Positions 2,168 to 63,372 of a DNA stretch of 64,000 nt are shown piece by piece. The number at the start of each line of letters is the position of its first letter. Within the stretch, counting starts at the first letter, position 1. Source of the DNA: an archaeon (GTDB taxonomy: Archaea; SpSt-1190; DYHY01); assembly GCA_043803745.1 (NCBI GenBank), contig JAZDJS010000049.1, forward strand, positions 13,920-77,919, given 5' to 3'. The notes below the pieces were generated by a model that ran no database searches, was not told where the DNA came from, and saw nothing but the letters and a program-made list of their open reading frames with translations. The translations under genes were made by a program, and so were the position numbers.

Positions 2168-2969
2168 CAAAAAGGCGGGTGCGGACTTGCGTCCTACAGT
2201 CCTCCGCAGAGGACTTGCGGACTTGCGTCCTACAGTAGCAATCTACGACCTTACCGACTGCGAGGGCTGCGAGCTTGCGTTTGTTCCGATTGTCGAGAAG
2301 ATTTTGAAAAACGCGCGGATTGTGGAATGGCGGCTCGGACAGGAAAGGAAGATTCCCGTGGAAGGGAAAATCGACGTTTCCTTCGTTGAGGGCTCGCCAA
2401 TGACTCCTGAAGACAGGGAGCTCATGATTGAGCTGCGGGAGAGAAGCAAGACAATAGTCTCACTTGGAGCATGCGCGTGTGTCGGCGGGGTCCCGAGCCT
2501 TGCTGACAAGAGGGTCAGGGAGAAATTCATGTCCCTCATCTATTCCCCGGAATACAAGTCGAAAAGCAATGTCCCGGCGGAACCCCTTGACAGGACAATA
2601 AAGGTCGATTATTACCTCCACGGCTGCCCGGTTCTTCCGGAGACTGTCGGATGGTTCCTTGAGCGGATCCTCATAGGGAGGATTCCGGACAAGTTCGGGG
2701 GATATCCGGTCTGCCTTGCATGCAAGGCGCGCGAGAACAAGTGCCTCCTTCTGGAAGGCAAGCCCTGTCTTGGTCCGGTTTCGGCCGGGGAATGCGGGGC
2801 GCCCTGCCCAAGCTTCGGAAAGGTTTGCTATGGCTGCACAGGAAGGGTCCGGGGCGCGAACATTCCCCAGATGAAAGCTGAGCTTGTGAGAATCCTGGGA
2901 AGTGAGGCGCTTGCCGAAAGCCATCTGAGGATATTTCTGAAAGACTGGAAGGTGGAGGAGAGAGGCTGA
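2157..2969 (+). CDS. hydD: NiFe hydrogenase small (delta) subunit
   Basis: CEGC, VEGS, LGACA..GG and GCP motifs plus a C-terminal Cys cluster (VCLACK...CLGPV...CGAPCP...CYGC). Confidence 0.88.
   Translation: MRSSKKAGADLRPTVLRRGLADLRPTVAIYDLTDCEGCELAFVPIVEKILKNARIVEWRLGQERKIPVEGKIDVSFVEGSPMTPEDRELMIELRERSKTIVSLGACACVGGVPSLADKRVREKFMSLIYSPEYKSKSNVPAEPLDRTIKVDYYLHGCPVLPETVGWFLERILIGRIPDKFGGYPVCLACKARENKCLLLEGKPCLGPVSAGECGAPCPSFGKVCYGCTGRVRGANIPQMKAELVRILGSEALAESHLRIFLKDWKVEERG
2180..2236 (+). repeat. 36-nt in-frame insertion: 21-bp direct repeat around a hairpin
   Basis: TGCGGACTTGCGTCCTACAGT at 2180-2200 and 2216-2236; hairpin AGTCCTC-CGCA-GAGGACT spans the junction. Confidence 0.85.
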
Positions 2970-15025: not shown

Positions 15026-15098
15026 GGGTCCGTGGTCTAGTGGTTATGACGGCGCTCTCACACAGCGCAGGCCGCCGGTTCAATTCCGGCCGGGCCCA
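15026..15098 (+). tRNA. tRNA-Val(CAC)
   Basis: GGGTCCG/CGGGCCC acceptor stem, anticodon arm GCGCT-CTCACAC-AGCGC, T-loop TTCAATT. Confidence 0.96.
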
Positions 15099-17905: not shown

Positions 17906-17983
17906 AGCGGGGTAGAGTAGCCTGGAGTGCTCGTCGGGCTCATAACCCGAAGATCGGACGTTCAAATCGTTCCCCCGCTACCA
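17906..17983 (+). tRNA. Initiator tRNA-Met(CAT), CCA encoded
   Basis: A1-U72 pair (AGCGGGG/CCCCGCT); three consecutive G-C pairs in the anticodon stem TCGGG-CTCATAA-CCCGA. Confidence 0.96.
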
Positions 17984-52822: not shown

Positions 52823-53170
52823 ATGGATTCCGTCGAGAAGATTTACAGCACGCTCATGAAGGACACCCTTGAGATGGTCTGCCGGATGGCCGGACCCTCC
52901 CTCGCATTCCACGCCGTTGCGTCAGCCCAGGAAAAGTTCTCGGAAAAGCTGAAGGGACTCGTTTACACGCGCTATGACATGTCGATTGAGCTCAAGGATT
53001 CGGGCAAGAACGAAAAAGCCCAGCTCCTTTCCCAGATTTTCCAGGAGATAATAAACTATGCGCGCGAGGTAATAGGGGACAACATTTACATTTACGCCGA
53101 GAAGGGGATTGACGGCGTGAGGGGCGATGCTGAGAAGGAAAAGGTTGCCCTGCCCAAAATAGCGTCATAG
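52823..53170 (+). CDS. Small soluble helical protein (output-domain-like)
   Basis: Two related helix-G-helix motifs (CRMAGPSLA, REVIGDNIY); resembles the C-terminus of 56731..57813. Confidence 0.6.
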   Translation: MDSVEKIYSTLMKDTLEMVCRMAGPSLAFHAVASAQEKFSEKLKGLVYTRYDMSIELKDSGKNEKAQLLSQIFQEIINYAREVIGDNIYIYAEKGIDGVRGDAEKEKVALPKIAS

Positions 53171-53351
53171 ATTTTTCTGCTATTTTGGACTTTGCTACAC
53201 TCAGCCGAAGATTGCCTCCTAAGCGAACTTTCTGCACTCTTCGACTTTGCTCCGCTCAGCCCAAAATAGCGTCTTAGAAGTTTTAGGCTATTTTGGACTT
53301 TTGCCCATGCTCGGCCGAAGATTGCGTCTTGAACGTAATTTGCAATCTTCG
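53153..53351 (+). repeat. Four stacked fold-back units, each starting with a recoded PKIAS* gene end
   Basis: Units start at 53153, 53205, 53260 and 53315; tails ACTTTGCTACACTCAG, ACTTTGCTCCGCTCAG and ACTTTTGCCCATGCTCGG. Confidence 0.92.
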
Positions 53352-53471
53352 ATGCTGTTCCAACCCGACCTGAAATGGCCTTCCGAGCGCCTTTCTTTTG
53401 GAAAATTTTCCCTGTCCGAATAGGGGAAACCCAGTAAAAAAGTTTATTAGTGTGTTACGCTGTATTACTCT

Positions 53472-55283: not shown

Positions 55284-55356
55284 TGGGCCCGGCCGGAATT
55301 GAACCGGCGGCCTGCGCAGTGTAAGTGCGCCGTCATAACCACTAGACCACGGACCC
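55284..55356 (-). tRNA. tRNA-Val(TAC)
   Basis: Same body as tRNA-Val(CAC); anticodon arm GCGCA-CTTACAC-TGCGC. Confidence 0.96.
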
Positions 55357-60522: not shown

Positions 60523-61851
60523 ATGTCAGTTGAGATTACCGCTATTGGCGGATATGACGAAATTGGAAAGAATATGACCGTCGTTTCATTCGGCGGGGAG
60601 GCGATTGTGCTTGACATGGGAATACATGTCGAACGCCTCATGGGCGAGGATTACAACATTGCCCGGATGAGCCGGGAAGAACTCCTCGGGATAGGCGCGA
60701 TTCCGGACTACCGGCGCATCAGGGAAATCAGGGAGAAGGTTGTCGGGGTTTTCATCGGTCACGCGCACCTTGACCACGTTGGAGCCGCAGGGAAACTTGC
60801 CGGGCTTTTCAAGGGGGTGCCGTTCTACATGACCCCGTTCACGGCAGGGGTTTTCAAGAGCCAGATTGACGATGAGGAAAAGTACAGGGGCCAGAAGCCT
60901 GACGTCAGGATAGTGACTGCTGGCGCAAAGATCGCAGCCGGGCAGAATTTCGTGGTTGAGTTCATCGCGGCGGCGCACTCGATTCCGGATGCAACGATAC
61001 TTGCGGTGCACACCCCGAAGGGGATTTTCCTCTATGCGCTCGACTGGAAGTTCGACGAACATCCCGGAATCGGGAACCGGACGAACATCGCGCGGCTCGC
61101 GCAGCTCGGGGAGAAGGGACGGGTCCTTGCGGTCGCCTTCGACACAACGAGGATTGAGCGGAGCGACCCCACGAAGGGGGAAGCCTGGGCGAAGGAGCAG
61201 ATTGTGAACAAAATCGGCGAGCTTGACGGGGAGGGGATAATAGCGACAACCTTCGCATCCCACATTTCCCGGCTCCAGACCCTGATAGATGCTGGACGCG
61301 ACCAGAAGCGGAAGGTCCTCCTTCTCGGGCGGAGCATGGAGAAATACACCAATGTTGCAAAAGAGCTGCGGCTGATTTCCCTCGGACGGGCGGATGTCTG
61401 GGGGAGGCCGAAATCTATTCAGGCAACCCTTTCGAAGATAAAGAACGACAAGGAGAAATACCTGCTCATCGTGACCGGGAACCAGGGGGAGCCGGGTTCG
61501 GTGCTCGACCGGATGGTCCAGGGGGTCCTGCCCTACAAGTTCGACAATCTTGACAACGTCCTGTTCTGCTCCGAGGCAATCCCGACCCCGATGAACCTTG
61601 CCTGCAGGAAGGATATAGAAAGGCGGCTCAGGTCAATGGGCGCGCACGTTCACCTCGGCTTGCATGTCTCAGGGCACGCATCCGCAGCGGACATTGAAAG
61701 GTTCGTAAAGCTCGTGAAACCGGAGGAAATAATCCCGACGCACGGGGGTATTGACAAACTGCTCCGGGCAAGGAAGCTCATGGAAAGCATCGGCTATCCG
61801 GCTGACAAGGTTCATCTACTGCACGACGGAGAGTCAGTTAGGCTGAATTAG
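60523..61851 (+). CDS. rnj: Ribonuclease J (archaeal beta-CASP)
   Basis: GGYDEIGKNM, HAHLDHVGA, HSIPD, DWKFD, TTFASHISR, HVSGHA and PTHG motifs. Confidence 0.92.
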   Translation: MSVEITAIGGYDEIGKNMTVVSFGGEAIVLDMGIHVERLMGEDYNIARMSREELLGIGAIPDYRRIREIREKVVGVFIGHAHLDHVGAAGKLAGLFKGVPFYMTPFTAGVFKSQIDDEEKYRGQKPDVRIVTAGAKIAAGQNFVVEFIAAAHSIPDATILAVHTPKGIFLYALDWKFDEHPGIGNRTNIARLAQLGEKGRVLAVAFDTTRIERSDPTKGEAWAKEQIVNKIGELDGEGIIATTFASHISRLQTLIDAGRDQKRKVLLLGRSMEKYTNVAKELRLISLGRADVWGRPKSIQATLSKIKNDKEKYLLIVTGNQGEPGSVLDRMVQGVLPYKFDNLDNVLFCSEAIPTPMNLACRKDIERRLRSMGAHVHLGLHVSGHASAADIERFVKLVKPEEIIPTHGGIDKLLRARKLMESIGYPADKVHLLHDGESVRLN

Positions 61852-61969
61852 GTAGCAACTGACTCGAACGTCCTCGGCAGGGGACGGAGAAAGCGTGAAG
61901 TTGAGTTAGTCTCGCTTTCGACATCCGGGCAACGGGAGCCTGGGCGGAGAGTCAGTTAAGCTGAACTAG
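61825..61969 (+). repeat. Three copies of the rnj 3' end with fold-back arms
   Basis: DGESVRLN* (61825-61851), DGESVKLS* (61883-61909), GGESVKLN* (61943-61969); antisense arms at 61857-61865 and 61910-61919. Confidence 0.88.
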
Positions 61970-63372
61970 AGTTCCCCGGTTGCTTGCCTTTGCCTGAGCG
62001 TTTCCATCAGCCCTTCCGGGTCGGTTCCGAGCCTTCTGGCAAGGGCCATTCCGTAGCCGCCCTGGGAAATCCCCTCAAGTATCCTGTATTTGTTGGAGGG
62101 GTCGTCGTAATCGGCAACCCTCCTGAACGCAACACAGGGCGTTCCTTGGAATTCTCTCACAAGGCCGACATCGTGGGTGACAACAAATGAATTGAAACCG
62201 GCCGCCTGTGCAAATTTTATCAAACCTTCGGAGAGTGCTCGTTCAACCTCGGGCTCCGTCCCGCTTGACGGCTCGTCAATAAGAAGGAGGTCGTAGAGGT
62301 TTGCGTCCCTGTTCATCCTGGCAACATATGCCTGACCAGTCTCAAGATGTCCCTTTCCAGCAGAATCCCCGAAATCGAAGCAGGGCCACAGCCGTCTTAC
62401 CGGGGAAAACTCGATTTCGTCGGCAAGTGCATAGAAGCCATTCATCGGCAGGAGGATGTTGATCCCTATTGTTCGCAGATAGACGCTTTTCCCCATTGAA
62501 TTGGAGCCGGTAATCATTGTCGTCCTTTTTTCAGGTCCCCATCCGGCATCGTTCGGGACCGGTCTTATTCTGGCGGTCCTGCTCCTGCTGTAATCGCATT
62601 TTTCATATGCCCGGTGCACTGCGTTCCCGATTCGTCCCCTCCGCTCCTCCGGGTCGAGGAATTTCGGCCTGGCGCCGTCTTCGCAAATGTATGCAAGGGC
62701 GAGGTAACCGGCGAGCTGCTCTTTCAGGACCCGACCGTATTCCGCGAACTCCGGGAAATGTTCGAGGAGGCTTGCTGCAGCTGCGAGGTTTTCCTCGTCA
62801 ATCTCAAATAGCCTTCTCGGGCGCCCAGTGTCCCGCGCCCTCAGTTCAACAACCCCCCTCGGAGGATATTCTTCCCTGACCTTCCTGGTCGCCTCCAAAA
62901 AATCCGGCGACTGGAAAAGCACTTGCCTGGCGTATTTTTTCAGGTCGTGCGCAACCGAGGAACGGGAATCCAGATTCTCGATTTCAGCCAAGACGAGGGG
63001 AAAATTGGCAAGCCGTTCAGCGGCAAGGGCGCGGGCCTTTTCAACCTCGCCGTTTTCGCGCCAGCGAGAAGAGTAGATTTTGGAATCGGGAATTGCTCTG
63101 GCGAGCCCCTGCACCTTCCTCAGGAAATCCGGCGCGTCCATCAGCTCTGAAAAGAACTGCAGCCGATAGTCCCGGGTAGCCTCGTCTATCGGGGTTTCAA
63201 GAATCCTTCTGACCCTGCCGAAAGTGGCGCTTCCGCCGAACCCGGGCGTGTTCGCAACAATAAAATCCAGGTTGGTTACTTTCAGGGCTTCGAGCTCCTG
63301 CTCAGAATAAGTTAGAGGTGTTCTTCCGGGAATCTTCAAGATGTCGAGTTTTTCCGGAGGACGCGGTTTCAT
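61966..63372 (-). CDS. MutS-related ATPase (domain V, lacking mismatch-binding domains)
   Basis: VPND, ITGSNSMGKSVYLRTI, LLIDEPSSGT, VVTHD and GYG.ALA..LG motifs. Confidence 0.8.
   Translation of the reverse strand: MKPRPPEKLDILKIPGRTPLTYSEQELEALKVTNLDFIVANTPGFGGSATFGRVRRILETPIDEATRDYRLQFFSELMDAPDFLRKVQGLARAIPDSKIYSSRWRENGEVEKARALAAERLANFPLVLAEIENLDSRSSVAHDLKKYARQVLFQSPDFLEATRKVREEYPPRGVVELRARDTGRPRRLFEIDEENLAAAASLLEHFPEFAEYGRVLKEQLAGYLALAYICEDGARPKFLDPEERRGRIGNAVHRAYEKCDYSRSRTARIRPVPNDAGWGPEKRTTMITGSNSMGKSVYLRTIGINILLPMNGFYALADEIEFSPVRRLWPCFDFGDSAGKGHLETGQAYVARMNRDANLYDLLLIDEPSSGTEPEVERALSEGLIKFAQAAGFNSFVVTHDVGLVREFQGTPCVAFRRVADYDDPSNKYRILEGISQGGYGMALARRLGTDPEGLMETLRQRQATGEL

Follow-up and report, generated by a model that had tools for sequence, protein, structure and literature searches.

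Repeated, recoded gene ends and hairpin modules behind the RNase J gene of a small-genome archaeon

The RNase J gene and its three ends

The RNase J gene (rnj) occupies positions 60523..61851 on the forward strand of the window, i.e., the whole 64,000-nucleotide (nt) stretch of DNA analyzed here (G000:C49:13920-77919), which belongs to a 1.23-Mb, 90% complete genome (G000) from a family of archaea that likely falls within DPANN (Nanobdellota is the phylum most frequent in the best RNase J cluster). The open reading frame (ORF) encodes 442 amino acids (aa), carries the Pfam families RNase_J_b_CASP, RMMBL, and Lactamase_B, and ends in DGESVRLN (terminal peptides are given here without a sign for the stop codon that follows each of them). 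Two further versions of this end lie behind the gene, and the three gene-end cassettes with the hairpins between them fill 145 nt (61825..61969), all read on the forward strand. Cassette A1 (copy 1; 61825..61851), the working end, comprises the last eight codons and TAG (GAC GGA GAG TCA GTT AGG CTG AAT TAG). It is followed by AACTGACTC (61857-61865), which is complementary at 9/9 positions to GAGTCAGTT (61831-61839), i.e., to codons 3-5 of copy 1 and likewise of copy 3, and both the minimum-free-energy and the centroid folds join the two as hairpin 1 (61831..61865), with the rnj stop codon in the loop. The tail-1 hairpin (CGTCCTC-GGCA-GGGGACG; 61869..61886; 7 bp, one G.U), a degenerate form of the GTCCTC..GAGGAC hairpin class that recurs across the genome, overlaps with its 3' arm the start of cassette B (copy 2; 61883..61909), a spare that reads DGESVKLS in the +1 frame with serine AGC and leucine TTG. 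Behind it, TCTCGCTTTC (61910-61919) is complementary to GAAAGCGTGA of copy 2 except for one T.T mismatch, and the fold gives hairpin 3 (61889..61919), in which GAAAGCG(TGA) pairs with (TCT)CGCTTTC and the stop codon of cassette B lies in the loop. The tail-2 hairpin (TCCGGGC-AACGGGA-GCCTGGG; 61924..61944; 7 bp, two G.U, from the fold) then leads to cassette A3 (copy 3; 61943..61969), a second spare, which reads GGESVKLN in the +1 frame and probably represents an older end that was displaced. Through a shared CTAG, its TAG overlaps the stop codon of a convergent gene for a 468-aa MutS domain V (MutS_V) protein (61966..63372, reverse strand), whose stop abuts cassette A3.

The copies start 58 and then 60 nt apart, and, apart from the 27 duplicated nt, the two units contain 31 and 33 nt. 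Over 25 nt, copies 2 and 3 are 68% and 92% identical to copy 1, respectively. Between copies 1 and 2, 8 of 21 nt differ, amounting to four synonymous and two non-synonymous codon changes (P = 0.005), with the switches TCA/AGC and CTG/TTG included. Copies 2 and 3 both sit in the +1 frame relative to rnj, and since a TAG in that frame (61853-61855) is followed by no ATG, GTG, or TTG before copy 2, neither copy is translated as the DNA stands.

The rnj array is genuine and lies far beyond chance. In the 118-nt spacer, two windows of 8 aa plus stop matched DGESVRLN at a minimum of 6/8 positions, whereas 100,000 shuffles of the spacer yielded one such window in a single case and two windows in none. 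Moreover, the nucleotide pattern of copies 1 and 3 had two matches in the window and none in 100 shuffles. The original prediction, that the rnj 3' end occurs three times in recoded form with hairpin arms covarying with their own copy, was borne out, since every listed element was recovered at its position and both the complementarity and the folds of the array agree with it. Neither of the two objections that it had named for itself, an assembly artefact and a similarity no greater than in shuffled intergenic DNA, was sustained: the shuffles speak against the latter, and orthologous arrays in two other genomes and one metagenome contig show that the rnj array is not an artefact of assembly.

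The rnj array in related genomes

Comparisons were made with G001 (same genus), G003 (same family), and the metagenome contig L037; G002 also belongs to the family, bringing the family genomes to four. RNase J of G001 is 77% identical to that of G000 in aa and 73% in nt. In a metagenome scan that gave 17 RNase J loci, L037 was the sole close one, its protein being 94.8% identical to that of G001 and 77% to that of G000 (71% in nt for the gene versus G000), and inspection by eye of L038 and L039 (RNase J 47-48%) showed no copy of the gene end.

In G001, the gene ends with an A-type cassette (GAG TCG GTA AAG CTT AAT TAG), followed by ACTGACTC, which pairs through G.U, and, further 3', by GACGGAGAAAGCGCGAAGCC, a decayed B-type cassette without its stop. 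The working end of L037 is of the B type (GAC GGA GAA AGC GTA AAG TTG GGT TAA); behind it come GACGCTTTC as the matching arm, a tail formed by a GC hairpin, and an A-type cassette as the spare (GAG TCG GTA AAA CTG AAC TGA, encoding ESVKLN). The end of rnj in G003 is different (GGG GAA GCG CTG AGC ATC TGA); it has an arm of its own, GCGCCATCCCC, and a further copy that is partly decayed. The cassette order is thus A-B-A in G000, A in use plus decayed B in G001, and B in use plus spare A in L037. As judged from these sequences, the cassette types appear to swap roles between close relatives, with one such exchange evident from the comparison.

The B-tail-A stretch of G000 aligns with L037 (by eye, the tail-2 hairpin with the L037 tail GTCCGGC-TATCC-GCCGGAC), and A precedes B in both G000 and G001, so that the simplest history would start from an ancestral A-B-A array. 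From the three sequences we infer that L037 lost the first unit between two GACGGAGA repeats, which would have brought B into frame. Since the rnj types are distinguished by a TCN/AGC serine switch and have alignable tails, the A and B types of rnj alone were treated as orthologous. Shared "allele types" at the genes for a SepF-like protein and for aIF2-beta were set aside, because two synonymous encodings share ~75% identity anyway.

Coding-like evolution of the spare ends

The comparisons show that the spare cassettes evolve like coding sequence. Those of spares between genomes used loci already chosen, and for each of them it is improbable that so many changes would all be synonymous by chance. 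Cassette A3 of G000 and the spare A of L037 differ by four synonymous and no non-synonymous codon changes (randomisation P = 6e-4), and the aIF2-beta spares of G000 and G003 by five and none (P = 4e-4). Within G000, the working end and the spare differ by five synonymous and no non-synonymous changes at aIF2-beta and by seven and none at the SepF-like gene. The switches TCA/AGC, CTG/TTG, and AGA/CGC keep the amino acid and no particular nucleotide position. In addition, spare B differs between G000 and L037 at only 3 of 21 nt, though the genes are only 71% identical. Decayed spares were found as well, of rnj in G001 (type B) and of the SepF-like gene in G003, where the spare now encodes AGLWRA.

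The SepF-like gene shows a 35-nt exact block followed by 7/7 recoded codons, and the thermosome gene shows the two in the opposite order. Moreover, only 2 of 21 nt separate A1 from A3 in G000, against 4 of 21 between either of them and the G001 orthologue. These mosaics of exact and recoded blocks, together with the closeness of A1 and A3, suggest patchy gene conversion within arrays.

As for the last codon, the stop often differs in copies that are otherwise exact (TAG/TAA, TAA/TAG, TAA/TGA), e.g., at G001 C6:73435, C7:50139, and other loci and in G000 arrays. In two G001 cases the direct repeat stops one base short of the end of the stop codon. At the TrxR-like gene of G000 (C2:74838-74960), a 25-nt exact block is followed by a spare that runs to a shorter end, RYLNET versus RYLTEQEV, and that would alter the protein.

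Duplicated termini across the genome

The rnj array is one instance of a pattern common to this family. To survey gene ends, ORFs of at least 100 aa were scanned for a repeat of their last 6 aa plus stop at 5/6 or better within 260 nt downstream, with partner-shuffled controls. G000 had such repeats at 12 of 3110 ORFs (controls 1, 1, 1, 0, 1) and at 6/6 identity at seven (controls 0, 0, 0, 0, 1), and its protein genes with end arrays include those for aIF2-beta, thermosome, the SepF-like protein, and a pilin-like pair. The main targets of terminus duplication are tRNA genes. Their 3'-terminal 13 nt were copied downstream in 22/40 genes and upstream in 0/40, their 5'-terminal 13 nt upstream in 8/40 and downstream in 0/40, and the middle 13 nt in 0/40 and 1/40. 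Copies of 3' termini lie only downstream and those of 5' termini only upstream. The whole-genome examination of G001 for tRNA and ORF-end copies gave 3' copies downstream of 15/41 tRNA genes and upstream of none, 5' copies upstream of 7/41 and downstream of none, and no copies of the middle on either side; 11 of its 2356 ORF ends had a peptide copy (controls 0, 0, 0, 0, 0). Nearly all of the G001 copies are exact. Arrays at rnj, aIF2-beta, thermosome, and the TrxR-like gene are common to G000 and G001, and the remainder are lineage-specific.

The arrays have the form (terminus - R)n - terminus, in which R stands for short hairpin modules, and are not plain tandem repeats. Their repeats vary in length (13-55 nt) and are separated by 15-130 nt without genes; at tRNA genes they begin in the T-loop or T-stem and extend to the 3' end. 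A second array of this kind in the window lies at a 115-aa gene without a Pfam family (working end at 53170), behind which the end PKIAS occurs four times on the forward strand (53153-53170, 53205-53222, 53260-53277, and 53315-53332; array 53153..53352), with a period of 54-55 nt, the order A-B-A'-B', and an arm and an M1 tail (see below) for each copy. Its type A (CCC AAA ATA GCG TCA TAG) and type B (CCG AAG ATT GCC TCC TAA) differ at all six wobble positions, stop included, and share no codon. The orthologues of this gene in G001 and G003 have no array.

Younger events show how a unit may arise. In the thermosome gene of G001, a 26-nt direct repeat surrounds a 15-nt insert, CATCGGGG followed by ACTTGCA. 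The insert opens with 8 nt that are reverse-complementary to the beginning of the repeat, and its rest resembles the left box of M1. Since the inverted copy is already inside this young insert, the complementary arm is made by the event itself and does not evolve later.

The hairpin modules

Several families of modules fill the space between duplicated termini. M1 (GGAYTTYGC..GCTCARCC) had 66 matches versus 4-8 in shuffles, GTCCTC..GAGGAC had 16 strand matches (8 loci) versus 0-2, and M3, likewise tested against shuffles, had 20. Also among the R modules are an oligo-T/A hairpin with TCCGTTGACGGGCG behind it and a module on the 5' side of the form GAAACTTT..GAAAGTTTC. The M1 boxes covary, 58 of the 66 matches being Watson-Crick at one pair (Fisher p 1.7e-8), and M1 is confined to the family, with 11 in G000, 7 in G001, and 5 in G003 versus 0-1 in 14 other genomes of the class. 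A strand preference of M1 found no support, the mismatched pairs being sense-strand wobbles in 5+5 cases and antisense-strand wobbles in 3+8. The M1 pattern also occurs in at least 120 viral contigs, once in each, which was taken as chance for a 17-base gapped pattern, and the 18-nt M3 core had no match in viral contigs. K-turn, C/D-box, and bulge-helix-bulge motifs were considered for the M1 core and the rnj junctions and rejected by eye, as the required GA pairs, bulges, and junction helices are absent.

The tail class seen first at rnj recurs as predicted, with GTCCTC-loop-GAGGAC at 8 loci, 6 of them beside duplicated gene termini. For hydD, where this tail class had also been noted, the hairpin is indeed the same; the duplication there is at the 5' end of the gene, not at its 3' end. 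There, a 21-nt exact direct repeat (2180-2200 and 2216-2236; 2180..2236, forward strand) surrounds a 15-nt GC-hairpin insert of the GTCCTC..GAGGAC class, as at the first rnj tail, in the 5' part of a gene of the Oxidored_q6 family (hydrogenase small subunit-like). It forms a 36-nt in-frame insertion in the N-terminus, which reads ADLRPTV-LRRGL-ADLRPTV.

Interpretation and alternative explanations

The account that explains most of these findings, to which we give about an even chance of being right, is that the rnj array is a tandem array of three alternative 3'-end cassettes that has been remodelled and in which each cassette works at times. A cassette would consist of the last 8-9 codons and the stop; cassettes 1 and 2 would each be followed by their own complementary arm, which places the stop in the loop, and a GC hairpin, with cassette 1 in use and cassettes 2 and 3 as out-of-frame spares. 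Such arrays could originate when small non-coding hairpin modules insert in or beside gene termini and the terminus is directly duplicated over a long and variable length; the same insertion may also yield an inverted copy templated by the first part of the terminus. The insertions that survive would be those that leave a whole gene upstream (3' ends) or downstream (5' ends). Remodelling might then proceed as the first unit is lost between the GACGGAGA repeats (8 nt) with which the units begin, along with patchy gene conversion. If each cassette is periodically the working end, all of them would stay translatable, and wobble positions and hairpin arms would drift together.

If this account is true, untranslated DNA past a stop codon would be under selection at the amino-acid level as a reserve gene end, and annotators and scans of the ratio of non-synonymous to synonymous rates (dN/dS) would miss such ends.

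Several points weigh against this account of alternating ends. The evidence offers no route back for a cassette once it has been lost or displaced, and if units were only lost, selection on the spares could not persist over the long term. At their starts, the PKIAS cassettes A and B have at most 3 identical nt in a row, indicating that an exchange based on microhomology cannot be general. The comparisons rest on three or four kindred genomes, which are not independent, and the peptide-based genome scans detect only spares that still encode the peptide, so that decayed spares are under-counted. Finally, no match to Phage_integrase, Y1_Tnp, RVT_1, Cas1, the TnpB Zn-ribbon, Resolvase (PF00239), or the IS110 Transposase_20 was found in G000, which is 90% complete. 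Phage_integrase (PF00589) had no match in G002 and G003 either and was found only in G001 among the four family genomes. As G000 yielded no protein of the Phage_integrase family, no XerA-type recombinase was found in this 90% complete genome. The sole transposase-family match in G000 was DDE_Tnp_1, in a 343-aa frame at C15:86409-86936 between tRNA-Ile and tRNA-Leu, away from the arrays examined.

A more far-reaching reading goes beyond alternating ends. The arrays combine two known kinds of structure, hairpin repeat elements and gene-end duplication, and there is a real chance that a dedicated system stands behind them. In its full form this reading is tentative and, taken as a whole, rather unlikely: a system guided by hairpin structure would build and exchange spare termini of essential genes and tRNAs, its module would comprise the terminal codons, the stop, an arm of its own, and a recognition hairpin, and selection would keep the modules usable while forcing neighbours to be orthogonal in nucleotides. 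Were it true, switching cassettes would alter the DNA and RNA of a gene end and leave the protein unchanged. Possible purposes would then be to shield gene ends from damage, the genome being very small, or to escape sequence-guided attack, and the reading would imply an unrecognised enzyme able to produce long target duplications along with an inverted copy templated on the target.

The first alternative to be weighed is that the units are attachment-site products of site-specific integration, i.e., that tiny non-autonomous elements or their scars brought in a synonymously diverged end, as e14 does at icd; we consider this doubtful, with a small but appreciable probability. In the sections of PMC13626634 that deal with icd, the prophage e14 supplies a working 3' end and leaves the C-terminal fragment icdC, a known case of a replacement end that differs synonymously; use of icdC after e14 excision shows as a run of synonymous changes, and either end completes icd. 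Similarly, the sections of PMC9897764 on islands describe partial tRNA 3' copies as direct repeats that flank integrated islands, including a 44-bp repeat around a 21.4-kb island at tRNA-Gln. As far as these sections go, the likeness lies in a working end followed by a displaced partial copy, which at icd differs mainly synonymously. Integration would also fit the strong bias to tRNA 3' ends, the repeats from T-loop or T-stem to the 3' end as at integrase sites, the direct repeats that hold a gene 3' end and flank an insert, the SepF-like block of identity with a recoded end behind it, which resembles a crossover core, and the Phage_integrase ORF in G001. However, e14 and such islands are of kilobase scale and carry an integrase, whereas the units described here are gene-free, have only 15-130 nt between their repeats, form arrays of up to four units, and contain a target-specific arm in each. 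Neither Phage_integrase nor Resolvase matches were found in G000 (within its 90% completeness), G002, or G003, although arrays occur in G000 and G003. With repeats of 13-55 nt and an arm peculiar to each target, no one site for a recombinase stands out; 5' ends are duplicated too, with one insert in frame inside a coding N-terminus; and the arm of the young event is an inverted copy of the target itself.

Alternatively, the spares might be ghosts of allelic replacement, in which the 3' part of a diverged relative's gene recombined in via the tail modules and the old end was left downstream; the spares would then look coding merely because they were coding until recently. This we hold to be unlikely. 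It draws on the finding that the spares of G000 resemble the working ends of relatives no less than its own working ends do (from G001, the G000 spare differs by 3 nt and the working end by 8 at the SepF-like gene, and by 3 versus 6 at aIF2-beta), as well as on the mosaics of exact and recoded blocks and on tail modules that are conserved between loci and could provide homology. Synonymous encodings share ~75% in any case, though, so that being closer to relatives rests on very few sites. Moreover, the A-B-A order of rnj predates the split of G000 from G001 and L037, whose genes are 71-73% identical in nt, and both spare B (3/21) and spare A (5/21, all synonymous) are intact across that split, which would be unexpected if they were unconstrained. 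The SepF block, being identical within G000, also misfits a diverged donor tract.

It is quite improbable that the array is simply a functional 3' untranslated region (UTR) with multiple hairpins, serving termination or mRNA stability between convergent genes and grown by replication slippage. On the sense strand, the rnj array gives a fold of four hairpins in a row (-56.2 kcal/mol, z -2.9, a fold equalled by 1 of 200 shuffles), versus -44.6 kcal/mol and z -2.25 on the antisense strand, and wherever the four hairpins contain a wobble pair, it is G.U on the sense strand. In addition, the array parts two genes whose stops would otherwise overlap. Against such a role, hairpins spanning the stop are not enriched at gene ends (stems of at least 8 bp at 119 of 1151 ends versus 121 of 1156 interior sites), and a stop in the loop was rejected as a general trait of gene ends. 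No terminator-like hairpin with a T-run was found in 61600-62200, and Rfam 15 gave nothing in 61700-62100 even at E<=10, its only matches at gathering score in the whole window being three tRNAs. RNA structure, moreover, cannot explain the conservation of amino acids through TCA/AGC, CTG/TTG, and AGA/CGC, and the same process also acts on the 5' ends of tRNA genes and within the N-terminal coding part of a gene.

Less probable still is that the downstream cassettes are reached in translation, by ribosome hopping of the T4 gene 60 type or by other recoding. In the bypass of T4 gene 60, matched GGA take-off and landing codons lie on either side of a 50-nt gap, and mitochondrial "byp" elements are of a similar class. 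Here, GAC GGA opens both cassettes 1 and 2 (61825-61830 and 61883-61888), 58 nt apart, with hairpins and a stop between them; matched codons thus flank a hairpin gap with a stop, the inserts are small, GC-rich hairpins in or near coding sequence, and direct translation would account for selection on the spares. However, the stop lies seven codons past the putative take-off codon and is not adjacent to it, and this layout misfits the other array loci: the frames of the spares vary by locus, with offsets of 31, 86, and 141 at PKIAS and 33, 91, 29, and 122 elsewhere, the PKIAS cassettes lack an identical codon, and the tRNA arrays have the same architecture without translation.

Chance similarity or an assembly or amplification artefact is practically negligible, for although arrays are frequent at contig ends, the peptide match arose in only 1 of 100,000 shuffles, independently assembled records share the order of units (B-tail-A of G000 in L037, and arrays in G001 and G003), and the units have, by eye, no exact word in common that is long enough for a loop in the assembly graph.

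Relation to known systems

The tail modules are short, non-coding, structured sequences with covarying stems, and their many copies are scattered through the genome, for the most part close outside genes but in some cases in frame within them. In these respects they resemble known families of short hairpin repeats, including repetitive extragenic palindromic (REP) sequences and bacterial interspersed mosaic elements (BIME), miniature inverted-repeat transposable elements (MITEs), Rickettsia palindromic elements, and mitochondrial GC clusters and hairpin elements. Such families, however, have a fixed sequence and a short target duplication or none, whereas the duplication of 13-55 nt found here is often longer than the insert, the hairpin is partly copied from the target, and the duplicated target appears to be under coding selection. 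The defined termini with a fixed short duplication and the cognate transposase (DDE, or Y1/RAYT for REP) expected of MITE/REP elements were not found, the duplications being variable (13-55 nt) and G000 having no Y1_Tnp match.

In silent-cassette systems such as Neisseria pilE/pilS and yeast MAT/HML/HMR, promoter-less partial copies change the protein made at an expression site. The arrays are similar in that partial copies without promoters lie beside the expression site and seem to take turns, and the block pattern suggests gene conversion. Unlike in those systems, the peptides of the array cassettes are identical or one to two conservative residues apart, and variant proteins were not found; only the nucleotides and the hairpin change, and exchange is deduced from the comparison of genomes. 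CRISPR (clustered regularly interspaced short palindromic repeats) spacer integration by Cas1-Cas2 likewise joins a short insert to a direct target duplication, of ~30 nt. The present arrays share the short insert with a long direct duplication and differ in that no Cas1 was found in G000, the targets are gene termini, and the length of the duplication is variable.

A narrow literature search found no published description of such arrays, which is weak evidence of novelty. Inserts down to 15 nt together with duplication of a terminus form a combination for which no known transposase or integrase family accounts. Terminus duplication touches more than half of the tRNA genes as well as core genes (RNase J, aIF2-beta, thermosome, SepF-like) in little-known archaea with small genomes, and the defined junctions, with young exact events in G001 and old recoded ones in G000, offer a basis for enzymology and for estimating the rate of exchange.

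Arrays at contig ends and tRNA genes

On the practical side, the arrays break assemblies, and partial tRNA copies can mislead tRNA annotation. Contigs begin or end inside arrays at G000 C10, C14, C19, C24, and C50 and at G003 C27, indicating that arrays are hard to assemble; G003 C27 breaks off behind a tRNA once four identical units of 53 nt have passed.

The window has three tRNA genes, and all of them (15026-15098, 17906-17980, and 55284-55356) show duplicated termini. The tRNA-Val(cac) gene has a 5'-end copy upstream, the tRNA-Met gene has a 3'-end copy 77 nt downstream, and the tRNA-Val(tac) gene has both. In addition, at three further loci (G000 C4:8573-8830 and C21:19903-20157, and G001 C6:73435+), the partial downstream copy is longer and is itself split by a hairpin module of 28-41 nt, and at tRNA genes the break of these split copies lies in the T-loop, between TTC and GA.

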